Below, one piece after another: positions 2,620-58,757 of a stretch of 64,000 nucleotides of DNA. The position numbers and the translations under genes were made by a program. The notes under the pieces are model-generated. The model had not been told where the DNA came from. It did not search any database and saw only the letters and a list, made by a program, of their open reading frames with translations. Each line of letters starts with the position of its first letter. The first letter of the stretch is position 1. Location: contig JACPHH010000009.1 of the NCBI GenBank assembly GCA_016188705.1, forward strand, positions 98,091-162,090, given 5' to 3'. The stretch comes from Candidatus Peregrinibacteria bacterium (GTDB lineage: Bacteria > Patescibacteriota > Gracilibacteria > UBA1369 > JACRIC01).

Positions 2620-2685
2620 GGAACTTCTGAAAAACGTGCTTACTACTGCAAATTTCGTAATGAAATCACGTTTTTCAGATGTTCC
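2620..2685. repeat. Family-1 palindromic element, short hairpin form (66 bp)
   Basis: ggaacttctgaaaaacgtg ... cacgtttttcagatgttcc: 19-nt inverted ends with 1 mismatch, 12 nt after the thiC stop. Shares its ends and the cttactactgcaa core with copies at 6662, 50352, 56085 and 26468. Confidence 0.85.
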
Positions 2686-4443: not shown

Positions 4444-4605
4444 GGACATGCTGAAAAACATCTTAAGAGCTACGATTTTTGTATTTTGGCTACAAATGTT
4501 TCAGCGCTTATCGCCGTATCTAATCTGATACGTCTCTTTCGCGCTTCAACGTTTTCGCGCAAAATACAAAAATTTCGCTTCAATAATCTGTTTTTCAGCA
4601 TGTCC
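4444..4605. repeat. Family-1 palindromic element, divergent full-length variant (162 bp)
   Basis: Perfect 17-nt inverted ends ggacatgctgaaaaaca / tgtttttcagcatgtcc. Central gccgtatctaatctgatacgtc matches the central hairpin of copies 6662 and 50352. Confidence 0.8.
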
Positions 4606-5446: not shown

Positions 5447-5475
5447 CGCTTTTTTTAGAGCTAAATTTTTGGGTT

Positions 5476-5529
5476 ACATTTTTCGCTCGAAATGGTAAAA
5501 TTTCGTTACAAAGTTACGTTTTTAAGAGG
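5476..5529. repeat. Family-1 element, right-half fragment
   Basis: acatttttcgctcgaaatggtaaaatttcgttacaaagttacgtttttaagagg is near-identical to the right half of copies 6662 and 50352. Confidence 0.8.
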
Positions 5530-5634
5530 TTTTTCAGGAGCTGTTTACGTATAATTTTTGCCATAAGTTTTCTGTGATTTCGAATGGTGATTTGTTAGCA
5601 TAAGGATGCGTTAATTTTTATTTTATTATTTTTT

Positions 5635-6661: not shown

Positions 6662-6825
6662 AGGAGCCTCTGAAAAACGTACCATCTACTGCAATTTTAC
6701 CATGTCGGCTGCAAAAAGTTCAAAGCTCCTCAACGTATCTTATTTGATACGCTTTCGTCGTTTTTCACATTTTTCGCTCGACATGGTAAAATTTCGTTAC
6801 GAAGTTACGTTTTTCAGAGGCTCCT
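6662..6825. repeat. Family-1 palindromic element, full-length archetype (164 bp, MITE/REP-like)
   Basis: Perfect 20-nt terminal inverted repeat aggagcctctgaaaaacgta / tacgtttttcagaggctcct. Inner 13-nt IR ttttaccatgtcg / cgacatggtaaaa. Central hairpin gtatc-ttattt-gatac. About 95% identical to 50352..50512. Confidence 0.9.
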
Positions 6826-10667: not shown

Positions 10668-10805
10668 AAAAAACATAATCCCAATATCCAGTATATTTTC
10701 CCACTGCTATTGTTTTTTATTCAAATAGCAATGGTGCGTGGGATTACATTTTCGCTACACTTCGATATGCGCTCAAATGGTAGTCTCCGCATCATTGTTT
10801 AAAAA

Positions 10806-16872: not shown

Positions 16873-17136
16873 GAAAATTGGGTTTTTTATGAATTGAGCT
16901 TGGAAACCTTAAGAAAAGCGTAATTTTGAAAATGAAAATTGAGTCGAAAATCTGTTTTTCAGCATGTTCTTAGATTTATGTGAACGGTTTTTAGAAAGTT
17001 TTAGTGAAAAGTAGGGTGTTTTGTGCAATTTTTGTGATCCATTATTGTGGATTTTTGTTTGACAAATTATATAAAGTTTGTCATCTATATAACCTCAGTT
17101 AAATATTTAGTTAAATATTTTTTTATTTTCACTTAA

Positions 17137-20135: not shown

Positions 20136-20207
20136 ATATATTTTTAGCATCCATACGAAGTTACGTTTTTTAGAGGCTCCTTATATGTATTTTTAATTTT
20201 TTTTACT

Positions 20208-26800: not shown

Positions 26801-26874
26801 GCGCCCGTAGTTCAGCTGGATAGAACGCAAGCTTGCGGAGCTTGAGGTCGCAGGTTCGAGTCCTGCCGGGCGCA
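26801..26874 (+). tRNA. tRNA-Arg (anticodon GCG)
   Basis: Clean 74-nt cloverleaf: gcgcccg-ta-gttc-agctggata-gaac-g-caagc-TTGCGGA-gcttg-aggtc-gcagg-ttcgagt-cctgc-cgggcgc-a. No encoded CCA. Confidence 0.9.
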
Positions 26875-26906: not shown

Positions 26907-27178
26907 TAGGCAGTGTTCACATAAAATTTTTACAGATGGAAGAGATGTATTTTGTTCAGTTCAAGGAACGACGACGAGAGTGTACCCAAAGGTACATCGA
27001 GAAGGAGTGACGCAGAAATGGACAAAATACGTCTCTTCCCTTCGGGTTGGACGGAAAGATGTCCGTCTTCTTTGTTGCTCGTCGCTTATGGAGCGCTGGC
27101 TCCACCACGCTCCTCGCGCCTTGAATCCAGACATCTTTCCGTCCAACCATCGTAAAAATTTTATGTGAACACTGCCTA
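26907..27178. mobile_element. Family-3 non-autonomous element (272 bp, 27-bp perfect TIRs, TA-flanked) with nested internal helices
   Basis: The TIR taggcagtgttcacataaaatttttac (26907-33) is the exact reverse complement of 27152-78. Internal pairings: gatggaagagatgtattttgt with acaaaatacgtctcttccc, and ggttggacggaaagatgtc with gacatctttccgtccaacc. Read as ggcagtg...cactgcc, both ends are flanked by TA. Lies 32 nt downstream of tRNA-Arg. Confidence 0.75.
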
Positions 27179-34523: not shown

Positions 34524-34975
34524 AATATATTTTTGATGTATTATTTGAGCAGTGTTGTGTCTTTTTTAAAGATTTTTATGGCTCATTTGTATTAATGGTC
34601 TGGAAAAATGGCACTATACGTTTTTTTTAAAAAATATGCTGGCAAGCTGAAGTTTGGAGTACTAGAGACCGGTTTTTAACAGTATCACCGGTGATATTGT
34701 TAAAAATTGTACCTGCCCATCATTTTTTTGAAGCAATGGGCAAATACCACGAAATTCATTGCTTCAAAACAGCGGTGGGCAACTTCCAAAAATCGACTTG
34801 ACGGACATTTTTGCATGAAAAGCGAAATAAATTTTCGGCTGAAAATAAGGGAAAAACGAGTATGATAATTTTTTGATATAAAATGTGTTAAAATAGCATT
34901 TATAAGCCATTTTCGTCTTGTTTAACATGGGAATTTTTGAGAACATTGAATCATACAATATTTTATAAAAATACC

Positions 34976-36031
34976 ATGATTCACGCGCAAAAATTACATA
35001 ATGAATTTGTGAGACTTGGCGGATTGAGGCTTAATTTGAAAAATAAAATGCTCGCGATGCTCCCTAAAATCCATGAAAGCGGAATTTGGAAGAAATATGC
35101 CGATTCCATTGAGGAATATGCCGGAAAATATGGAGATATCGCAAAAACAACAGTTATCAAAAGGCTCAGACTTGAAGAAAATTTGAAAGATAAGCCATGT
35201 TTGAAAGCAGCGATTGAAAAAGCGGGCGTACATAAAGTCGCGATGCTGGCAAAAATTGCCACGCCTGAAACGGATTCAAGAATGGCAGAAAATATTGTAA
35301 GCATGAGCAAAATGGCGGTACAAAGTTTGTCGAAAGAGTTCAGGTCTGGACAAGTTGAAAAAAATGGCAATCAGCAGTTTCATTTTTCCAATTTTGGATT
35401 CGCGGATCAAGGTCAGTCACAACCTTGCCGAGCCGTTTTTATGACGAAAAAGATAGAACTTGATGAAAATGCAACTTTTCTTTTCTTGAAATTAAAATCA
35501 AAACTTGGCAAAAATTTGAGCGACAAAGAATTTTTAAAACTCATTTTGGAAGAACGAAGTGTCACCGGTGATACTTTGAACCGACAGATCAAACAGTCTG
35601 ATGAAAAAGATTGTTTCCTCGCGGCAGACAATGTAAGAGTGGCAGACAATGTAAGAGCAGCAGACAATGTAAAGGCGGCAAATAATGTAAAAGCGGCAGG
35701 CACGATAAAAGCAAAAGAAATTGCTTCTCGCTACATTCCCGTCAGCAAAAAACGCGAAGTCGTTGCTCAAACAAATGGAAAATGTATCTACCCGAATTGC
35801 CATTCGCCATATGAAGTTTTGCACCATGTTTACCGCTACAGTGAAAGCAAAACCAACGACTCCATCATCCCGTTTTGCAAGATTCACCATGAATTCGCGC
35901 ACCATAACTTAATACGTAATGAAACGCTCAAAACAGACGCGTGGCGAATATCTCTTCGGAAAGACCCCGTGGCAGAAATTTCACAGGCGGATTTTTTATA
36001 CCGAAAATATAAACAAAAAATAGTGGTCTAA
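34976..36031 (+). CDS. HNH endonuclease-domain protein (DUF222-like architecture)
   Basis: C-terminal CIYPNC....EVLHHVYRYSES.......FCKIHHEFAHHN (HNH/His-Me finger). Internal 18-bp tandem repeats at 35621-35698 encode AADNVR/VADNVR/AADNVK/AANNVK. Confidence 0.8.
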   Translation: MIHAQKLHNEFVRLGGLRLNLKNKMLAMLPKIHESGIWKKYADSIEEYAGKYGDIAKTTVIKRLRLEENLKDKPCLKAAIEKAGVHKVAMLAKIATPETDSRMAENIVSMSKMAVQSLSKEFRSGQVEKNGNQQFHFSNFGFADQGQSQPCRAVFMTKKIELDENATFLFLKLKSKLGKNLSDKEFLKLILEERSVTGDTLNRQIKQSDEKDCFLAADNVRVADNVRAADNVKAANNVKAAGTIKAKEIASRYIPVSKKREVVAQTNGKCIYPNCHSPYEVLHHVYRYSESKTNDSIIPFCKIHHEFAHHNLIRNETLKTDAWRISLRKDPVAEISQADFLYRKYKQKIVV

Positions 36032-36130
36032 ATTTTCGTCAGATTACGCTGGAGAGATTGCGTAGGTTGGTTAAAAATGAGGCAGAGTTTCGCGAGACTT
36101 AAGCGAAGGGGCGGCGACTCCCGTTTGAAC

Positions 36131-36170
36131 ACATAGCAAAGCGTAGCGGAAATGGAGTCCCCGTCGTCTT
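36131..36170 (+). repeat. 40-nt direct repeat, copy 1 (flanks ORF 36281..36880)
   Basis: acatagcaaagcgtagcggaaatggagtccccgtcgtctt matches 36921-36960 gcatagcgaagcgtagcgaaaatggagtccccgtcctctt at 36/40. Both are followed by an A-rich run and a cggtgg motif. Confidence 0.8.
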
Positions 36171-36280
36171 TTTTCAAAAAAAACGGTGGATAAGTACAAT
36201 TTTTTTATTTGACATAATAATAATTATGTATTATAAATATTTACTTTAACACTTGCAAATAAAACATTTAACGCTTTTTT

Positions 36281-36880: not shown

Positions 36881-36920
36881 GGTGAGACGACTTGCAATAT
36901 TTATTTAAATACATTTGAGC

Positions 36921-36960
36921 GCATAGCGAAGCGTAGCGAAAATGGAGTCCCCGTCCTCTT
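36921..36960 (+). repeat. 40-nt direct repeat, copy 2
   Basis: See copy 1. Followed by aaagcggtgggcaaatacgcgtgtggagattgc, which resembles acgctggagagattgc found upstream of copy 1 at about 36046-36061. Confidence 0.8.
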
Positions 36961-37046
36961 CTACCTGAATAAAAAATAAAGCGGTGGGCAAATACGCGTG
37001 TGGAGATTGCCTCAAATGATGATTTCTACTATAGTAATAGTCGCTT

Positions 37047-39267: not shown

Positions 39268-39319
39268 TAAAATTGTATACGCCCGCCGCTTTTCTTGAAA
39301 CAATGGGGCGGGAATTCAT

Positions 39320-39358
39320 TAGTCAGTGTTCACATAAAATTTTTGCGAACACTGACTA
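39320..39358. repeat. Family-3 minimal element: TIR-only hairpin between convergent genes
   Basis: tagtcagtgttc-acataaaatttttgc-gaacactgacta forms a perfect 12-bp stem. The left part is 24/25 identical to the TIR at 26907. TA-flanked. May also act as a bidirectional terminator. Confidence 0.75.
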
Positions 39359-42456: not shown

Positions 42457-42536
42457 GGATTATACGCACATTACTTTGAAAAAAAGCACATATCGCTGGC
42501 AGGCAAGAGTTCGTCGCTCGGATACTCGGCCGGATC
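42457..42536 (+). repeat. Family-2 interspersed repeat, copy a
   Basis: ggattatacgcacattactttgaaaaaaagcacatatcgctggcaggcaagagttcgtcgctcggatactcggccggatc shares long blocks with 53743..53873 and 58657..58708. Confidence 0.8.
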
Positions 42537-42913
42537 AAAAAGGGCGAAAATTCACTAAAAATGCTATCGGCTACGCATTTTTTAACGTTCATTTTCGCCT
42601 CTTTTTGAAAACCGGCCTGCGTAACTCGCTCCGAACTCCCGCCTCCCAGCATATGTTTTTAAAGTAATCCGCGTATGATCCGTATTATTTTCACATGATT
42701 ACAAGGCGCATTTTGATCAATGGAATTTCCGTTGTCGCGAGTATGAATATTTATGGAACTTTAAAAAAAACGAATTTCGGAAACGAAAATGCAAAAATTC
42801 GAGCAAAAATTCTGAATAATGACAAAGGCGTATCAGATGAAAATACGATTGATGAACGCGAAAATATAACCTCGAATGCGCATTTGAAAGAACGTTTTTT
42901 CGAGGTCTCAAAA

Positions 42914-43636
42914 ATGCGCGGCACTCAAAGCGTGCCCGTAGTCATTCTCCATGGCTGGGGCAGCAATCGCGCAAGTTGGCTTCCTGTCATGAAAATTCTT
43001 GATTCGCAAGGATTTGAGGTTATAGCTCCCGATCTGCCGGGTTTTGGAGAGAGCGATTTTCCGAAAAAGCCATGGAATGTTCAAAATTACGTCGACTGCG
43101 TCACAGCTCTCCTTGAAACATTGAATTTAAAAAAGGTTATTCTTTTAGGACATTCATTCGGCGGCCGCATTTGCATAAAATTCTCTCATCAATATCCAGA
43201 AAAAGTTCAAAAACTCATTCTCGTCGCGTCAGCCGGCATCAAGCACCCTCCAACACCGAAAATGAAAATACTCTCTTTGGTTGCTCGCTTCGGGAAAAAA
43301 ATTGTCGCCATTCCTGTTTTTGGACTTTTTGCATCGACCGCGAGACGCGCTCTTTACCGTCTGGCAGGTTCGCGCGACTATCTTGTTTCAGGTCCAAATC
43401 GCGAAACCTTTCTGAAAGTCATTGAGGAAGACCTTCGTCCCCATCTTCCGAAAATCTTGGCGCAGACCCTTCTCATCTGGGGTGATAAAGACTTAGTGAC
43501 TCCTTTGGAGGATGCCAAAATTATGAAGTCGGCCATCCCCGATTCCGAACTTGTTATTTTTCCAGGTATTCATCACAGCATTCAGCGTGAAGCCCCTGTA
43601 AAACTTGCGGAAACGGTAATATCTTTTCTTAAATAA
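42914..43636 (+). CDS. Alpha/beta-fold hydrolase
   Basis: VVILHGWGS, DLPGFGESD, nucleophile elbow GHSFGG, WGDKD, and C-terminal GIHHS (His). Probable start is ATG 42914. The upstream part of track ORF 42695..43636 contains repeat-derived sequence (TNFGNEN). Confidence 0.8.
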   Translation: MRGTQSVPVVILHGWGSNRASWLPVMKILDSQGFEVIAPDLPGFGESDFPKKPWNVQNYVDCVTALLETLNLKKVILLGHSFGGRICIKFSHQYPEKVQKLILVASAGIKHPPTPKMKILSLVARFGKKIVAIPVFGLFASTARRALYRLAGSRDYLVSGPNRETFLKVIEEDLRPHLPKILAQTLLIWGDKDLVTPLEDAKIMKSAIPDSELVIFPGIHHSIQREAPVKLAETVISFLK

Positions 43637-43638
43637 GC

Positions 43639-45690
43639 ATGATAGATTTTTTATTTTTTTCCATTTTTTTTCTTTGGGTCATTAATATTGCCGCGCAGAT
43701 TTTGAAACTGACCTATATCATCCAGCTTAAAGAATATCGGTGGGATCGTATTTTGGATTTTCTGAAATCGCCTGAAGGCCGCAGATCTATTTTTACTCCT
43801 TTTTTCTTTGTGTATCTTTTGATCATTCTTCTTGTTTTTTTCATTATTGTATTTTCATGGACTTCTTTGATTTCTCCATTTGTTTTTCTTACGAATGTTT
43901 TCCTTTTTTACTCTGCTGGATTTTTTATTATTCTCAAAAAACTTCGCGATCATTCTCTTCTTCGGCCGCGTTGGACAAAAAAATCTTTTCTTTTCGTTTC
44001 GCTTTCATTTTTAATGATGCTTTTCGTTCCTCTTATTTTCATTCTTGTCTTTATTTTTGCTCAAATGAATTCAGACTTTTTTATTTATAGTTTTTACTTT
44101 ATTAGTCGTCTGCTTTTTCTTGATACGTTTCTTATGATTCGTAATCTTTTCGATCTTTTGTATCGCGGGTGGATTCTCTCTCTCATGAGTCCTTTTTTGT
44201 TCATTTATAATCTTTTTGTACCATTTTTTGTTCTTTTTTGGTTTCTCATACTCCAAGCTGGGACGATTTTTATAAAAAAATATATGTACTGGCGAGCCGC
44301 GAAAAAAATTACATCAATGAGTCATTTAACCGTCATAGGCATTACGGGAAGCTACGGAAAAAGCACTACCAAGGAATTTTTGACGACCATTCTTTCAAAA
44401 AAATTTCAGGTTCTTGCCACTCCAGCAAACGTGAATAGTGAAATCGGTGTTGCTCAAATTATTTTAAAAAAACTTACTCCGACTCATGATATTTTCATCG
44501 TTGAAATGGGAGCGTATAAAAAAGGCGAAATCGCGCTTATTTCCAAAATGACACAACCGAAAATCGGCATTATGACGGCAATCAATGAGCAGCATATTTC
44601 TCTTTTCGGATCCATTGAAAACATAAAACAGGCGAAATATGAGCTCATGGAATCGCTGCCTGATGACGGTTTGGCTCTTTTCAACGGGGATAATGATTAT
44701 TGCGTCGAACTTTATAAAAAAACGAAAAAACCGAAACTTCTGTATTCAGTACAAAAAACTGACGATGAAAGGGTCGATAAAGATTTTTCTCATGGGAAAA
44801 ATGTTGATAGCGCGAAAAAACAATCTTCCGATATCTCTGCCACGAATGTCAAAGGCACGCAAGATGGAATTCGATGCACTCTTCATAAAAAACCGCTAAA
44901 AAATCTGGTTTCTTTACAAAATTGTAGTAGTAAGGGAACCTCTGAAAAACACCATTTTGGAAATGAAAATGAACAACAGGATTTCTTTGTTCCTGTGCCT
45001 GGAATCCATAATGTTTCGAATCTTCTGGCGGCGGCGGCTACGGCTTCGTATTTTGGAATGAGTCTCGCGGAAATTTCCGAAGCCGCCAAGCATATTCAGC
45101 CTCGAGAAAAAACTTTAAAACTCATGGCTGGCATCCGAAACACGCTCATTATTGATGACAGTTACAGCGCCAATCCTGATGGCGTCATGGCGGCGTTGGA
45201 ATATCTTGATTCGCTTGCGGCTCCGAAAAAAATCATGATCATGAGAGGGATGATCGAGCTTGGAGAAAAATCAGCTGAAGCTCATAAACGTGTTGGGAAA
45301 AAAGCCGCGGAAGTATGCGATCTTGTTATTTTTACGACTACGGATTTTTTCTCGGATTTTTTGGCTGGCGCCATGGAGATCATCAATCGCTCTGAAATAA
45401 GTTACTCTCATGTTAGTCACCCAGCAGTCAGTCATTCCAAAATCAGTCACCCTGAAAATCCTTATTCTGAAAACGGTAAGGGAACTTCTGAAAAACGCAA
45501 TTTCGGAAACGAAAATGTTGGATTTTTCAATGATGCCGCATTTTTCAATCATAATGAGAAAGTATTGCAAATCAGCTCAGCGGAGGAGATTATGGAAAAA
45601 GTGAATCCGTATGTTTCCGATGGAAATATTTTTCTTCTTGAAAATCGTATTCCATCTCAAATCATTCTCGCGCTCAAAATGTTACACTAG
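43639..45690 (+). CDS. murF: MurF-like Mur ligase with about 225-aa polytopic membrane N-terminus and two repeat-derived insertions
   Basis: GITGSYGKSTTKE (P-loop), ANVNSEIGVAQIIL, VEMGA, NGDNDY, PGIHNVSNLLAA, IIDDSYSANPD. The N-terminal 225 aa is almost entirely hydrophobic. Insertions fall at about 44900-44993 and about 45400-45565. Confidence 0.85.
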   Translation: MIDFLFFSIFFLWVINIAAQILKLTYIIQLKEYRWDRILDFLKSPEGRRSIFTPFFFVYLLIILLVFFIIVFSWTSLISPFVFLTNVFLFYSAGFFIILKKLRDHSLLRPRWTKKSFLFVSLSFLMMLFVPLIFILVFIFAQMNSDFFIYSFYFISRLLFLDTFLMIRNLFDLLYRGWILSLMSPFLFIYNLFVPFFVLFWFLILQAGTIFIKKYMYWRAAKKITSMSHLTVIGITGSYGKSTTKEFLTTILSKKFQVLATPANVNSEIGVAQIILKKLTPTHDIFIVEMGAYKKGEIALISKMTQPKIGIMTAINEQHISLFGSIENIKQAKYELMESLPDDGLALFNGDNDYCVELYKKTKKPKLLYSVQKTDDERVDKDFSHGKNVDSAKKQSSDISATNVKGTQDGIRCTLHKKPLKNLVSLQNCSSKGTSEKHHFGNENEQQDFFVPVPGIHNVSNLLAAAATASYFGMSLAEISEAAKHIQPREKTLKLMAGIRNTLIIDDSYSANPDGVMAALEYLDSLAAPKKIMIMRGMIELGEKSAEAHKRVGKKAAEVCDLVIFTTTDFFSDFLAGAMEIINRSEISYSHVSHPAVSHSKISHPENPYSENGKGTSEKRNFGNENVGFFNDAAFFNHNEKVLQISSAEEIMEKVNPYVSDGNIFLLENRIPSQIILALKMLH

Positions 45691-45703
45691 ACAGTGTTAA
45701 ACC

Positions 45704-45758
45704 TTTTCGCTTAAAATTTGCAGATTTCGTGACGAAGTTACGTTTTTCAGATAAGTTC
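45704..45758. repeat. Family-1 element, right-half fragment
   Basis: ttttcgcttaaaatttgcagatttcgtgacgaagttacgtttttcagataagttc, located just after the murF stop. Confidence 0.75.
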
Positions 45759-47163: not shown

Positions 47164-48357
47164 ATGCATTACTCGATTCAAGAAATTACCGATAAAAAAA
47201 TTTGGGAATCATTCGCTTCAAATTTTCCGCAAAGGACGTTTCTCCATTCGTGGCATTGGGGCGAATTCAATAAAAACACGGATGAGACCATTTTTCGATT
47301 CGGAATTTACGATGATGAAAGTTCAGAGGTTCCTTCATATACCGATGGTCACTGCTTCAATATCAATGACCATGGCTCACATGCGCTTCATCATATTTCA
47401 AATACGCATCATCACGTTTCACATACGAATGACAATAGCTCAAATACTTATCATCAGAACTCAAATACGAATGACATAAATACGAAAAAATATCTAAAAG
47501 GTATTGTCCTCATTATTAAAGTCATGGCGCGTCGCGGTTCCTTTCTTTTTTGTCCACACGGCCCACTTTTGGACTGGAACGATGAGTCTCTGGTCACGGC
47601 ATTTTTTCAATTCATTCAATCATTGGGAAAAAAAGAAGGCGTTGGTTTTATACGCATCAGTCCCCTTCTCTCTAATGATGAAAAACATCGAAACATATTT
47701 TCTCGCGCTGGCTTTCGAGACGCTCCCATTCACATGATGCATCCGGAGCTTAGTTGGACGCTTGATATCACTCCGAGCGAAGCATCGATTCTTCAAGGCA
47801 TGCGAAAAACAACGCGTTACCTCGTGAAAAAAGCTGAAAAAGATGGAGTGGAAATTGAAGTGAGGAAGGATGAAAAAGCTGTCTCCATTTTTCACGAAAT
47901 TCTCCGTGACACGGTAACGAGGCAACATTTTGTTCCGTTTTCTTCGGAATACCTTCTTGGTGAATTTCAAAGTTTTCTTGAGGACGATCACATTGCTCTT
48001 TTTTTGGCGAAATATGAAGGGCGGTATATCGCAGGAGCTGTCATTGTTTTTTACGGAAATTCCGCTTTTTATCATCACGGCGCGTCTCTCGCCGCTTTTC
48101 AAAAAATTCCAGCGTCCTATCTTGTACAATGGCGCGCCATTCAGGAAGCAAAACGCCGCAACATGTCACTCTATAATTTTTGGGGCGTGGTTCCTGAAGA
48201 GCAAAAAAATCATCCGTGGTGGGGACTAAGTCTTTTCAAACGCGGTTTCGGAGGTTCTTCCATGGAATATGTTCACGCACAAGATTTTATTTTAAAAAAA
48301 ACCTATTGGATTACTTATTGCATTGAACGATTGCGGAGAATAAAACGAAGGTTATAA
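47164..48357 (+). CDS. FemAB-family peptidoglycan bridge aminoacyltransferase, with His/Asn/Ser-rich insertion
   Basis: FLHSWHWGEF, LFCPHGPL, GMRKTTRYLVKKAEK.GVEIE, AGAVIVFYGN.AFYHHGAS, LVQW.AIQEAK. Insertion DHGSHALHHISNTHHHVSHTNDNSSNTYHQNSNTND is encoded at about 47310-47490. Confidence 0.85.
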   Translation: MHYSIQEITDKKIWESFASNFPQRTFLHSWHWGEFNKNTDETIFRFGIYDDESSEVPSYTDGHCFNINDHGSHALHHISNTHHHVSHTNDNSSNTYHQNSNTNDINTKKYLKGIVLIIKVMARRGSFLFCPHGPLLDWNDESLVTAFFQFIQSLGKKEGVGFIRISPLLSNDEKHRNIFSRAGFRDAPIHMMHPELSWTLDITPSEASILQGMRKTTRYLVKKAEKDGVEIEVRKDEKAVSIFHEILRDTVTRQHFVPFSSEYLLGEFQSFLEDDHIALFLAKYEGRYIAGAVIVFYGNSAFYHHGASLAAFQKIPASYLVQWRAIQEAKRRNMSLYNFWGVVPEEQKNHPWWGLSLFKRGFGGSSMEYVHAQDFILKKTYWITYCIERLRRIKRRL

Positions 48358-50351: not shown

Positions 50352-50512
50352 GAACCTCTGAAAAACGTACCATCTACTGCAATTTTACCATGTCGGCTGC
50401 AAAATGTTCAAAGCTCCTCAACGTATCTTATCTGATACGCCTTCGTCGCTTTTCACATTTTTCGCTCAACATGGTAAAATTTCGTTACGAAGTTACGTTT
50501 TTCAGAGGTTCC
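50352..50512. repeat. Family-1 palindromic element, full-length copy
   Basis: gaacctctgaaaaacgta...tacgtttttcagaggttc. About 95% identical to 6662..6825, with a compensatory G:C to A:T change in the terminal stem. Confidence 0.9.
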
Positions 50513-53742: not shown

Positions 53743-53873
53743 CGGATCATACGCACATTACTTTGAATAAGTCAGAATCTCGGCACGCGGAAGCTCGTCC
53801 GGATCATACGTTTTTTCCTTTGAAAAAAAATACATATCGCTGGAAGGAGGGAGCTCGTCGCTCGGATACTCGG
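53743..53873 (+). repeat. Family-2 interspersed repeat, copy b (two tandem units)
   Basis: cggatcatacgcacattactttgaa...gaagctcgtccggatcatacg, followed by tttgaaaaaaaatacatatcgctggaaggagggagctcgtcgctcggatactcgg. Units are bounded by ggatcatacg. Confidence 0.8.
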
Positions 53874-55934: not shown

Positions 55935-56084
55935 TTTTATGGTAAGGTAATCTTTTTTTTATTTTAAATTCATAATTTTTTTTTGTATATTTAAATCTAT
56001 TGACATATTTTTATATTTATGTTATAAGAAATTCCTATATCAATGATTTTTGAATTTATTACCCAATTTTCTATTTTTAATCAA

Positions 56085-56232
56085 GGAAACCCTGATAAAT
56101 ATGCTTACTACTGCAAATTGCAAAATTTGGCTGCAAACGCTTCAGACCTCCTCGCCGTATCTTCTTCTGATACGCCTTCGTCGGTCGCTCAGCGTTTTCG
56201 CTCAAATTTTGCAATTTTCGTAATGAAAAATC
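56085..56232. repeat. Family-1 element, divergent full-length copy overlapping the 5-prime end of the S-layer gene ORF
   Basis: ggaaaccctgataaatatgcttactactgcaaattgcaaaatttggctgcaaacgcttcagacctcctcgccgtatcttcttctgatacgccttcgtcggtcgc...ttttcgtaatgaaaaatc is collinear with copies 6662 and 2620. Confidence 0.75.
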
Positions 56233-58649
56233 ATATGAAAGCATATTTTAAAAAATATATTGGGACAGTCCTTATAGTTGCCTTTCTAGGGACAACTGGG
56301 ACATCATATCTGTTTGACCAAACAGTCATGGCGGATTCTCAGGTGGGACCGACGGCTGTTTTGCAGGTTTCTCCAACGGGAGGTTCGATACAAACAACCT
56401 TTACATTCGACGCGTCACTTTCAACCAATGCACGCGGTTCCAGGGGGAATCTCGATTACAGAATAAATTTTGAATACTCATCTTCCTCCTTTACCACATG
56501 GAACAGCGTAAGCCAATTCGACTACACCTATACCCAATCCGGCAATAAAAAGGTCATTCTCGACGTTCGGGACAGGGAAACAGGTTTAACCGACCGTGCT
56601 ATTCTCAGTCTCAATGTCGGCGAAAAACTGTCATGGAATGCTGAAATTGCCGTTTCACCCCTCAAAGGCGATAGCAATACCTCATTTCGATTTCAAATGC
56701 AGATGACGAGTGATCTTGCGACTCCTGTCACGGACTATGAAGTTCGTTGGGATTTTGACGGAGATAACGCTTGGGATACGCGTTTTTCAAATCAACATAC
56801 CGCGTATCATCTCTTTTCAAAAACCGGCTACTTTACGCCGAAAGCCGAAGCGCGCGATCCGAGTGGGAATACCGTCCTTGTTTTCGGACTCGGTGAAGAT
56901 AATACAGAATTGGGCGAAAAGCGTGAAGATATGATTCTCGTGGCTCGATCAGGCGCGCCGGATGCCAATATAAGCGTCTATCCTGGTGTCGGAATTGCCA
57001 ATTCCACCATATTTTACCTTGATGGTTCTGATTCTGTCGACCTTGAAGACCTTTTCAAAATTCAGTATCGTTTTGATTTTCAAAATGATGGCATTTTCGA
57101 TACGGATTTTTCATCAAATGCCAAAGCTTCGTATATTTACCCGCTTCCAGGTACGCAAACTGCGGTTGTGCAGGTAAAAGACAAAGATGGGCACATGGAT
57201 GAGGCTTACATTATGGTGGAAGTGCGTGAGCATGACACACCGCCGCAAGCGGATTTTACCATTCGAGGCGATGGAAAACTCGCGGAACAGCCTTATTCGA
57301 AAAATGGAACAGCGATTGGAACCACTTCCACTGTTTTTTCTTTCAGCGCCCAGAGTGTCCGTGACAATGAAGATTCCTCTACGAATTTACAAGTACGATT
57401 CGATTTCGACGGCGATACAATTTTTGATACCGCATTTTCCACCAATAAACGAGCCGAATACCGTTATTTAAAAATCGGTAATTTTACCGCTATGATGCAG
57501 GTACTCGACAGCGCCGGCAGTATCACTTCGGTGTCAAAAGAAGTTACCATTGTTGCCAATACTGATCCTGAAGCGAAACTTATCATTACGCCGTTAGCAG
57601 GCACGCCCGCAACGGTTTTTACCTTTGATCCGAGAAATTCGCGAGACGCCCAGTATCGAAATTCCTCGCTTCGTGTACGCTATGACTTCAATTCCGACGG
57701 TATTTACGATACGAAATTTGAAAGCATCAAAAGCAGAAGGGAGACATTTAAAAATCCTGGCAAAAAATCGATTACGCTCCAAGTAATGGATCCCGAGGGA
57801 AAAATCGCTACCGCCACGCAGCAAGTTGAAATTTATTCCAACCAGACTCCGGTAGCTCAATTTGATATTTCACCTCGAGAAGGGACTTTTTCCACGAACT
57901 TTGTTTTTGACGCTTCAAAATCTCTTGATCCTGAGCCGAGTTCGGGTAAGCTTCAATATCGTTTTGATTTCGATTACACAGGTCCTAATGACATTGAATA
58001 CGATTCCAATTTCAGCAGTAATCCCATCCGAAAAATTCAGTATAATCAAGTCAATAAAATCGGAAAAATTCAAGTTCGAGTTGAAGTGAAAGATGCTGAT
58101 GGAAAAACCACTACCGCCATTTCAGAAATTTCGCTGCATTGGTCTTCTCAATACATTGAATACTTTAGACGCAAAGGCGTGCTTCGAGGATATGAAAAGG
58201 GAGAGATGAAACCCGATCAGCCTATTACTCGAGCTGAATTTACCAAAGTCATTTTAGAAACTCTGGATATTCCTTTAAATGGCGTAAAGTTTGAACAGAG
58301 ATTTACCGATGTACGAAAAACGGATTGGTTTTCAAAATATGTTTTAAAAGCCGAATCGCTCGGCATTATTCAAGGCTACGACAATCAAACTTTTCGTCCG
58401 AATGAGCCGGTAACGCGAGCCGAAGCGCTGGCTATTATTTTTCGAGCTTTTGAAATTCCGTCACAATCATCGAAAAAAGTATTTCCCGATGTCGCGATGG
58501 GACAGTGGTTTACGAGTTATGTATCCAGCGCCTATGAATCAGGTCTTATTAAAGGATACACTGATGGTTCCTTTCGACCTCATGGACTTATCACTCGCGG
58601 AGAGGCTTCCAAAATCAGCTATCTCGCCAGTCAAAAATACGATTTTTAG
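56223..58649 (+). CDS. S-layer candidate: signal/TM, about seven PKD-like repeats, three C-terminal SLH domains
   Basis: Repeating roughly 90-aa units (TTFTFDAS.S......L.YR.DF..DG..D), then HWSSQYIEYFRRKGVLRGY, FTDVRKTDWFSKYVLKAESLGIIQGYDNQTFRPNEPVTRAEA and FPDVAMGQWFTSYVSSAYESGLIKGYTDGSFRP. Probable start ATG 56223 or 56235; track ORF start 56043 reads through the repeat. Confidence 0.85.
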   Translation: MKNHMKAYFKKYIGTVLIVAFLGTTGTSYLFDQTVMADSQVGPTAVLQVSPTGGSIQTTFTFDASLSTNARGSRGNLDYRINFEYSSSSFTTWNSVSQFDYTYTQSGNKKVILDVRDRETGLTDRAILSLNVGEKLSWNAEIAVSPLKGDSNTSFRFQMQMTSDLATPVTDYEVRWDFDGDNAWDTRFSNQHTAYHLFSKTGYFTPKAEARDPSGNTVLVFGLGEDNTELGEKREDMILVARSGAPDANISVYPGVGIANSTIFYLDGSDSVDLEDLFKIQYRFDFQNDGIFDTDFSSNAKASYIYPLPGTQTAVVQVKDKDGHMDEAYIMVEVREHDTPPQADFTIRGDGKLAEQPYSKNGTAIGTTSTVFSFSAQSVRDNEDSSTNLQVRFDFDGDTIFDTAFSTNKRAEYRYLKIGNFTAMMQVLDSAGSITSVSKEVTIVANTDPEAKLIITPLAGTPATVFTFDPRNSRDAQYRNSSLRVRYDFNSDGIYDTKFESIKSRRETFKNPGKKSITLQVMDPEGKIATATQQVEIYSNQTPVAQFDISPREGTFSTNFVFDASKSLDPEPSSGKLQYRFDFDYTGPNDIEYDSNFSSNPIRKIQYNQVNKIGKIQVRVEVKDADGKTTTAISEISLHWSSQYIEYFRRKGVLRGYEKGEMKPDQPITRAEFTKVILETLDIPLNGVKFEQRFTDVRKTDWFSKYVLKAESLGIIQGYDNQTFRPNEPVTRAEALAIIFRAFEIPSQSSKKVFPDVAMGQWFTSYVSSAYESGLIKGYTDGSFRPHGLITRGEASKISYLASQKYDF

Positions 58650-58656
58650 AGACTCC

Positions 58657-58708
58657 TTAGAAAAAAAGTACATATCGCTGGCAGGCGGGAGCTCGTCGCA
58701 GATCATGC
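58657..58708 (+). repeat. Family-2 interspersed repeat, copy c
   Basis: ttagaaaaaaagtacatatcgctggcaggcgggagctcgtcgcagatcatgc. Confidence 0.75.
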
Positions 58709-58757
58709 AATTTTTGGTTTTTTTCTTGCGAATGAAAAAATAATATGGTAAAATTTT

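Follow-up and report, generated by a model that had tools for sequence, protein, structure and literature searches.

We analysed a 64,000-nt stretch of DNA from a Candidatus Peregrinibacteria bacterium (contig JACPHH010000009.1; the whole stretch is called the window below), in which the open reading frame (ORF) of a MurF-like Mur ligase (murF) contains pieces of a hairpin-forming repeat. A mobile hairpin element is likely to have been inserted in frame: two loops of the ligase carry its remnants, and the alpha/beta-hydrolase encoded directly upstream carries a full copy. The genome is of the Peregrinibacteria type, within the candidate phyla radiation (CPR), and was probably assembled from a metagenome. 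The features are listed in Table 1.

When GGAACYTCTGAAAAAC was searched with no more than two mismatches, 13 matches were found in the window against 0.13 expected, and two of them (44935-44950 and 45481-45496) were inside murF. The murF segments 1b and 2 were identical to each other at 37 of 42 nt, the flanking GTAAG included (0 of 500 shuffles), and both matched the intergenic short copy at 16901-16939 (0-1 of 1000 shuffles). In searches limited to the gene, site 1b and the core of site 2 (45480-45526) matched a hidden Markov model (HMM) of the element with E-values of 0.0012 and 3.9e-6, respectively. Both segments were open in one frame and read KGTSEKHHFGNEN and KGTSEKRNFGNEN (KGTSEK..FGNEN) within an uninterrupted ORF of 683 aa. 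A previous reading of this DNA, made from the sequence only (the sequence-only reading), had claimed that the two segments are homologous to a short repeat, called family 1, and are read in the same frame; both claims held.

Site 1 consists of two abutting partial copies. Site 1a is of the short type, uses another frame of the element (KPLKNLVSLQNCSSK) and matched the reverse complement of the short element (2612-2692) at 32 of 40 nt (0 of 500 shuffles). Site 1b is the terminal part of an element of the FGNEN subfamily. In a codon alignment with the closest orthologue, on contig L001, sites 1a and 1b together formed a 75-nt (25-codon) insert at 44890-44964, whose junctions were conserved at both sides (..TLHK before and ENxQxDFF.. 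after the insert). This insert was missing from L001 and from every other aligned homologue (79 sequences). An example of a peptide spanning the junction is ...NCSSKGTSEKHHFGNENEQQDFFVPVPGIH.... In the AlphaFold2 model, the site 1 residues 418-444 had predicted local distance difference test (pLDDT) scores of 56-62 and were located between the strands at 411-417 and 445-451. The sequence-only reading had extended copy 1 to a right arm at 44979-44993 (GGATTTCTTTGTTCC). This arm is not derived from the element, as it encodes DFFVP, which is conserved in L001 (GACTTTTTCATACCC) and in the family; the copy was thus real in its 1b part and ends before the arm, and it is joined by the second partial copy, 1a.

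Site 2 is a short-form element in which the left terminus and the FGNEN segment were retained and the right terminus was degenerate. It also matched the hydrolase copy, its nearest intergenic counterpart was the short copy at 16901-16975, and residual hairpin pairing was present between TCTGAAAAA and TTTTTCA. At this loop the protein of the window was about 54 residues longer than more distant homologues, and the L001 protein had a shorter insert there, which carries the motif TFGDTDFFGDE. Alignment with the orthologue, which had been proposed as a check of lineage specificity, thus showed site 1 to be specific and site 2 to have a shorter counterpart in L001. It is probable, not proven, from this comparison that the insertion at site 2 is older than the split from the L001 organism. 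The two right arms that had been placed after copy 2 correspond to an 18-nt tandem duplication; the first of them can pair with the left terminus, and an origin from the element is plausible, not demonstrable. The site 2 residues 594-637 had pLDDT scores below 50 in the model, between a helix (571-590) and a strand (642-644). The prediction agreed with the proposal that both sites fall in loops, since each was a low-pLDDT loop between confidently predicted secondary structure.

Table 1. Repeat elements, host genes and tandem units in the window; for element copies the strand is the orientation of the element
Feature	Position	Strand	Remarks
MurF-like Mur ligase ORF	43639-45690	+	683 aa, uninterrupted; host gene
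murF site 1a, partial short-type copy without distal terminus	44889-44934	-	other element frame, KPLKNLVSLQNCSSK
murF site 1b, terminal ~38 nt of FGNEN-subfamily element	44934-44971	-	GTSEKHHFGNEN
murF site 2, short-form element	45477-45548	-	GTSEKRNFGNENVGFFNDA
Three tandem 15-nt units (VSHPA, VSHSK, ISHPE)	45412-45456	+	just upstream of site 2, same loop; one unit in L001
18-nt tandem duplication, GGATTTTTCAATGATGCC (45520-45537) and GCATTTTTCAATCATAAT (45538-45555)	45520-45555	+	single FFGDE unit in L001
Alpha/beta-hydrolase ORF	42695-43636	+	313 aa; second host gene; Pfam Abhydrolase_1, E=3e-35
Full-length eroded element inside hydrolase	42755-42909	-	in-frame reading GTLKKTNFGNENAKIRAKILNNDKGVSDENTIDERENITSNAHLKERFFEVS; nhmmer E=5e-34 and 1.7e-21; alignments A2 and A3
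Full-length intergenic element, 162 nt	4444-4605	+	TTAC at both flanks
Full-length intergenic element, 162 nt	6663-6824	+	between convergent ORFs
Full-length intergenic element, 162 nt	50352-50512	+	TTAG at both flanks
Full-length element, degenerate right end	56085-56236	+	at 5' end of 868-aa ORF 56043-58649
Short (66 nt) internal-deletion derivative (family-1 short element)	2620-2685	+	hairpin -27.6 kcal/mol
Intergenic short element, FENEN/FGNEN type	16901-16975	+	nearest intergenic counterpart of murF copies
Right-half element directly 3' of murF stop codon	45694-45751	+	nhmmer E=8e-8

The full-length copy in the hydrolase was found in a protein of 313 aa whose homologues typically have 230-260 aa. 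ATG 42695 is the real start of this ORF because the N-terminus MITRRILINGISVVASMNIY is conserved in the L001 orthologue. The 52-aa insert was missing from 73 of 74 homologues, and its hairpin was the weakest of the family (-26 kcal/mol). In the AlphaFold2 model (mean pLDDT 84), the insert residues 21-78 had pLDDT scores of 44-59 and were located between beta2 and beta3. A third stretch related to the murF segments had been described upstream of the hydrolase; the relationship was borne out, and the location was revised, as the stretch belongs to this full-length copy inside the ORF.

The host gene murF looks functional from its sequence, because every family-invariant residue is kept, including the GITGSYGKS P-loop, and because the nonsynonymous (dN) and synonymous (dS) divergence from L001 was 0.20 and 0.65, respectively (dN/dS about 0.3). 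The closest orthologue, P0002 on L001, had 60% identity and was syntenic (hydrolase-murF-DegT-FemAB). Pfam domains Mur_ligase_M (PF08245, E=1e-35) and Mur_ligase_C (PF02875, E=7e-10) were matched at residues 235-469 and 498-579, respectively, the nearest solved structures to the soluble part were MurF 1gg4 (E=4e-36), 4cvk and 4qdi, and the Pfam and Protein Data Bank (PDB) matches ran on at either side of each insert. The AlphaFold2 model, built on the 79-sequence alignment, had a mean pLDDT of 85 and a predicted template modelling score (pTM) of 0.82. Residues 1-230 (43639-44330) are predicted transmembrane helices with the invariant WQLKEYR (WQLKEYRxDR) motif. This membrane region, common to about 1,800 CPR homologues of typically about 540 aa, takes the place of the canonical MurF N-terminal substrate-binding domain, which was not present; the substrate of the ligase is therefore not certain. 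Within the membrane region, the protein of the window has an additional stretch of about 35 aa, in which pLDDT was lower and no similarity to the element was detected. This stretch (about 44040-44160) and an insert after LLYSVQ (44755-44823) were considered as further element-derived sequence; neither gave an HMM signal, and both were set aside as rejected or undetectable.

The repeat family was defined from full-length copies. The window contained five of these (four intergenic copies and that of the hydrolase) and at least ten partial copies. One genome per species was scanned with the exact pattern CTGAAAAAC-N-TGATACG-N-GTTTTTCAG, which gave 33 loci with 28 genuine copies in ten metagenome-assembled genomes (MAGs) labelled Peregrinibacteria, Peribacteria, Gracilibacteria or Patescibacteria. 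Joint Genome Institute (JGI) metagenomes added 13 further full-length copies, making at least 41 outside the window in total. The length classes were 162 nt (23 copies), 163 nt (5), 164 nt (11) and 165 nt (1). The element HMM and an end-to-end alignment (A3) were built from 33 full-length copies of the window and the ten MAGs, and these fold as one long hairpin of 51 pairs, with 95.1% of cells paired against 78% in shuffled alignments. Compensatory double changes were found at 34 pairs against 20.9 in shuffles (0 of 500) and 13-19 with slid partner columns. The terminal inverted repeats form a 17-bp stem, GGAACCTCTGAAAAACA with TGTTTTTCAGAGGTTCC, which was 96.6% paired over the 33 copies, and the element runs from GGAACCTCTGAAAAAC to GTTTTTCAGAGGTTCC (terminus string GGAnnnnCTGAAAAAC). 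The internal loops are asymmetric and conserved, with CTACTGCA opposite TTTCGTTACGAA, and the apex is invariant (CGTATC-loop-GATACG, then CCTTCGTCG). Typical copies fold at -60 to -80 kcal/mol, and because G-U pairs are rare, both strands can form the hairpin. Rfam at gathering score detected only two tRNAs in the window and no family for the element, and at a permissive E-value the only matches of the element region were to generic long-hairpin microRNA models and were below threshold. Compared in sequence with these copies, the family-1 short element is recognisable as an internal-deletion derivative of the 162-164 nt element.

Some copies of the element lie at the ends of genes. The plausible true start of the 868-aa ORF at 56043-58649 (MKNHMKAYF..., followed by a segment resembling a signal peptide) is inside the degenerate right end of the copy at 56085-56236, which inflates the ORF call; this copy may supply the start codon or the 5' untranslated region of the gene. 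Solitary right halves without a left half were found at 5475-5530, 20154-20185 and 45694-45751, directly after the stop codons of plus-strand genes. These are either deletion remnants or elements with a function at 3' ends.

Evidence for mobility came from the flanks. Of 40 independent copies, 16 were bordered by exact 4-nt direct repeats, where 3.0 were expected (0 of 5000 permutations). The repeats included CTAA, TTAG, CTAG, TTAC and CTTG, with the consensus YTAR, and a 4-nt YTAR sequence is also the target duplication of IS5 (PMC5009759). Copies were present in both orientations, 20 in the same and 20 in the opposite direction relative to the upstream ORF, which is no bias. Because of the target-site duplications, the terminal inverted repeats, the small multicopy size and the absence of a transposase gene inside the element, we conclude, on this sequence evidence, that it behaves as a miniature inverted-repeat transposable element (MITE), a non-autonomous DNA transposon. 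An IS5-family enzyme probably mobilises it. The insert of murF site 1 was missing from L001; protein identity between both genomes is only about 60%, and an empty site with one YTAR could not be recognised cleanly. A scan of viral contigs with the long-element pattern gave 0 matches and thus no evidence for carriage by phages.

Intact in-frame copies were also found in unrelated proteins of other genomes. A forward full-length copy (GTSEKLATDCNF...SFSEV) splits the C-terminal sheet domain of an NspC-like pyridoxal phosphate-dependent decarboxylase (L012), and a reverse full-length copy (GPSEKHNFGNENAKIRAKTLNDDEAVSDEDT...) is located between the CoA_binding_3 and Bac_transf domains of a sugar transferase (L031). 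A search of 1.84 billion representatives with the hydrolase insert peptide detected a KsgA/RsmA methyltransferase (P0242), in which an in-frame full-length copy leaves the RrnaAD domain in two stretches; a eukaryotic NACHT/LRR protein (P0241) from the same search was a chance match. The copies in these three proteins are probably young, because their hairpins are the most stable of the set. Directly upstream of the copy in the methyltransferase, residues ~133-165 form a low-complexity segment (QYMMSQSQNQNQNQPIHARKNDTPYKCNPKTIPS), like the repeats upstream of murF site 2, and element insertions may seed further loop expansion. Four other copies in through-reading frames (L010, L034, L024 and L013) were rejected as internal insertions because they are N-terminal, before the transmembrane segment or the first Pfam-matched residues, and the true starts probably lie downstream of them. 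An alignment of three peptides encoded by the element gave no match in a protein word-index search. The sequence-only reading had interpreted murF, presumed to be essential, as a case of insertion and in-frame retention of a mobile structured repeat, and the absence of site 1 from L001 and the other homologues, the target duplications, the copies in unrelated proteins and the location of both sites in low-pLDDT loops support this.

All six copies in through-reading frames were 164 nt long; the 29 copies with other lengths were all outside such frames. A 164-nt copy and its 4-nt duplication make 168 nt, or 56 codons. The forward frame starting GGA-ACC-TCT was open in 23 of 33 copies. Reverse frame 0 normally contains stops (GTSEKRNFVTKF..FERK*) and is open only in the FGNEN subfamily, which has a 1-nt indel, reads NF(G/E)NENAKIRAK and includes the hydrolase copy, the copies of L031, L013 and P0242, and the murF remnants. 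An exact-pattern scan for this subfamily in JGI metagenomes gave 0 matches.

These observations suggest how the murF inserts arose. The Peregrinibacteria-type genome has probably been colonised by a MITE of 162-164 nt that inserts at YTAR sites and duplicates 4 nt. The 164-nt variant with its duplication would add 56 codons, so that the protein is lengthened and not truncated. Only copies of the right length, orientation and frame would extend a protein, and they would survive only in permissive loops. The full-length copy is still recognisable in the beta2-beta3 loop of the hydrolase, and the older murF copies would have been trimmed by in-frame deletions and small tandem duplications, with about 83 nt left at site 1 and about 70 nt at site 2. 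All inserted copies would be translated within their host proteins and give KGTSEK..FGNEN. We infer the transposase family, the logic of frame selection, the order of decay, the actual translation and the tolerance of the enzymes.

Several observations weigh against insertion of a mobile element as the source of the murF segments. The murF copies are short, and 1b and 2 have the same 5-nt flank and are maybe not independent insertions. Site 1a was significant only against the short element (family HMM E=0.23), and the putative relic at site 2 of L001 was weak in DNA (21 of 1000 shuffles, p about 0.02). The similarity of the element termini (GGAACCTCTGAAAAAC) to the ends of Escherichia coli IS5 (GGAAGGTGCGAA(T/C)AAG) was 10 of 16 positions without gaps and is suggestive only. 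In the 380 kb searched (the window and 50 loci), tblastn with E. coli IS5 InsH1 gave no match, and no transposase with matching ends was found, as pairs of termini 0.6-3.5 kb apart were coincidental only. In-frame copies are not common, as the search of 1.84 billion representatives added a single host protein. Moreover, the six through-read copies are three related pairs and so not independent, and three or four of them are N-terminal, where the true start codon may be downstream.

A single transposition into murF is a rather unlikely alternative, in which gene conversion or duplication within the gene produced the second GTSEK..FGNEN segment from the first and the two halves of site 1 resulted from recombination between copies and not from nested insertion. 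The murF copies are indeed nearer to each other (with the flank GTAAG identical) than to any other copy, other small duplications occurred in the same loops (15 nt three times and 18 nt twice), and the partial copies at site 1 meet exactly at a terminus. However, the murF copies are 546 nt apart with no further duplicated sequence nearby, and GTAAGG is close to the common flank and terminus (TAAGGAAC or TAGGGAAC) of many independent copies, so the shared flank is expected from target preference. The claim of in-frame retention would be unaffected by such a history. It is improbable that selection keeps the element mainly as a functional structured nucleic acid, such as an mRNA-stabilising, terminator-like or protein-binding hairpin, with the ORF copies as exaptations or by-products. 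The very strong covariation over the whole length, the conserved asymmetric loops and the presence in at least ten MAGs would fit this, as would the many copies 0-40 nt from ORF ends and the half-elements directly after stop codons at 45694, 5475 and 20154. The target-site duplications, however, point to transposition, the rarity of G-U pairs and the equal folding of both strands are as for a constraint on DNA, no Rfam family matched, and a strand-specific RNA function was ruled out by the absence of orientation bias relative to neighbouring ORFs (20 copies in each direction relative to the upstream ORF). A structured nucleic acid and a MITE are not mutually exclusive.

The murF segments are extremely unlikely to be ancestral loop sequence or chance matches, with the intergenic repeats unrelated or seeded from the gene. 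L001 has an insert at the position of site 2 with a similar FG.(T/E)(D/N)..FF.D motif, and the supposed right arm of site 1 is ancestral gene sequence. Against this, site 1 was missing from all 79 aligned homologues, the shuffle statistics were 0 of 500 to 0 of 1000, the same DNA gives the same peptide in the hydrolase, KsgA and the sugar transferase, and the family is widespread in intergenic DNA. An ancestral MurF peptide, which had been named as the finding that would overturn the insertion, was ruled out by the same element in these three proteins and the NspC-like decarboxylase and by its many intergenic copies. Very little also speaks for the murF frame as an assembly artefact, collapsed or chimeric at the repeats, or as a decaying pseudogene. 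Repeats are classic sites of mis-assembly, and the genome probably derives from a metagenome, but the gene order (hydrolase, murF, DegT, FemAB) and the insert flanks were collinear with the independent assembly L001, and reads are longer than the remnants (38-70 nt). The ORF was uninterrupted with its invariant residues and a dN/dS of about 0.3, and domain matches continued at both sides of each insert. A further and improbable interpretation is that the element is adapted to life inside genes, because 23 of 33 copies keep the forward frame open and one dedicated subfamily is open in reverse. The 54-56-aa module (GTSEK...FSEVP) would then be a peptide cassette that is delivered by a transposon and that Peregrinibacteria recurrently recruit into the loops of enzymes with housekeeping or cell-envelope roles, where it might serve as a common tag for interaction, localisation or regulation, or as an mRNA hairpin that tunes translation. 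If true, this would be a mechanism of protein innovation in CPR bacteria.

Other repeats were present in the window. A second intergenic family of about 73 nt (CATATCGCTGGCAGGC..GAGCTCGTCGCTCGGATACTCGG), unrelated to the hairpin element, was found at 42457-42529, just 5' of the hydrolase, and at 53801-53873 and 58639-58711 (60-82% identity). Copies of a third family (TTTGAGCGCATAGCGAAGCGTAGCGAAAATGGAGTCCCC) were located at 36124-36183, 36914-36973 and, inverted, 10740-10779, and this family is shared by both genomes because it also occurs at the contig end of L001 (5300-5324). A perfect 27-nt inverted repeat (TAGGCAGTGTTCACATAAAATTTTTAC) at 26907-26933 and 27152-27178 encloses 218 nt downstream of tRNA-Arg(GCG) (26801-26874), and a further copy matching at 93% was found at 39319-39348. 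Five tandem 18-nt units (GCGGCAGACAATGTAAGA-like) at 35603-35710 form an in-frame hexapeptide repeat in the ORF at 34937-36031. The FemAB-family ORF at 47164-48357 encodes 397 aa, 30 more than the 367 of the L001 orthologue, and has a low-complexity stretch rich in His, Asn and Ser (HALHHISNTHHHVSHTNDNSSNTYHQNSNTNDINTKK), a further loop expansion, again in frame, within the cell-wall gene cluster of murF.

Judged by analogy of behaviour, the closest known analogue of the family is the Rickettsia palindromic elements (RPE; Ogata et al. 2000 Science, 2002 Genome Res), palindromic repeats that occur in frame in unrelated genes at positions compatible with the fold, as reviewed in PMC10969869. Both are hairpin-forming palindromes of about 100-165 bp in small, reduced genomes, with many intergenic copies and a fraction in frame in unrelated housekeeping genes, an intrinsically open frame encoding a conserved peptide, and no partner transposase identified. 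The insertion sites also fit the host fold by lying in loops, which here is a matter of prediction, with inserts of pLDDT 40-62 between confident strands or helices. In contrast to RPE, the host belongs to the CPR Peregrinibacteria and not to the Alphaproteobacteria, and the two are likened by behaviour, with no membership by sequence claimed and no kinship in sequence expected. The Peregrinibacteria family also differs in its clear 4-nt YTAR duplications and possibly IS5-like termini, in the use of both orientations through different subfamilies, and in that the murF copies are short remnants and not full elements.

The element shares with IS5-derived MITEs the terminal inverted repeats starting GGA, the 4-nt YTAR duplication, the small size without coding capacity for a transposase, the many copies per genome and the internal-deletion derivatives. 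Tourist and PIF-Harbinger are the eukaryotic analogy for IS5-type MITEs. The Peregrinibacteria element differs from IS5-derived MITEs in the lack of a partner transposase in the 380 kb searched, with only 10 of 16 positions shared with the E. coli IS5 ends, and in hairpin complementarity that extends from end to end and has evolved by compensatory changes. Correia, ERIC, BOX and RUP elements resemble it as abundant hairpin repeats of about 100-160 bp near gene ends that are occasionally intragenic and give ORF fusions (PMC10969869). They are known mainly for what they do in RNA, as promoters, RNase III sites or terminators, whereas the Peregrinibacteria element has no bias of orientation relative to genes.

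The searchable literature yielded no account of an element of this kind from Peregrinibacteria or other CPR bacteria, and the family is a new one in a new lineage and not a new principle. In-frame palindromes that code for protein have hitherto been treated as a peculiarity of Rickettsia, and a 2024 review only speculates on similar protein change mediated by MITEs outside this genus (PMC10969869). The present family is an independent instance in the CPR, another lineage with small genomes and dependence on hosts, with a clearer signature of transposition (YTAR) and a suggested arithmetic of the frame (164 + 4 = 56 codons). It accounts for puzzling length variation and low-confidence loops in CPR proteins, and it leads to inflated or extended ORF calls where genes start. 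The family is a likely cause of assembly breaks in Peregrinibacteria-type MAGs and is usable as a marker for tracing Peregrinibacteria lineages.

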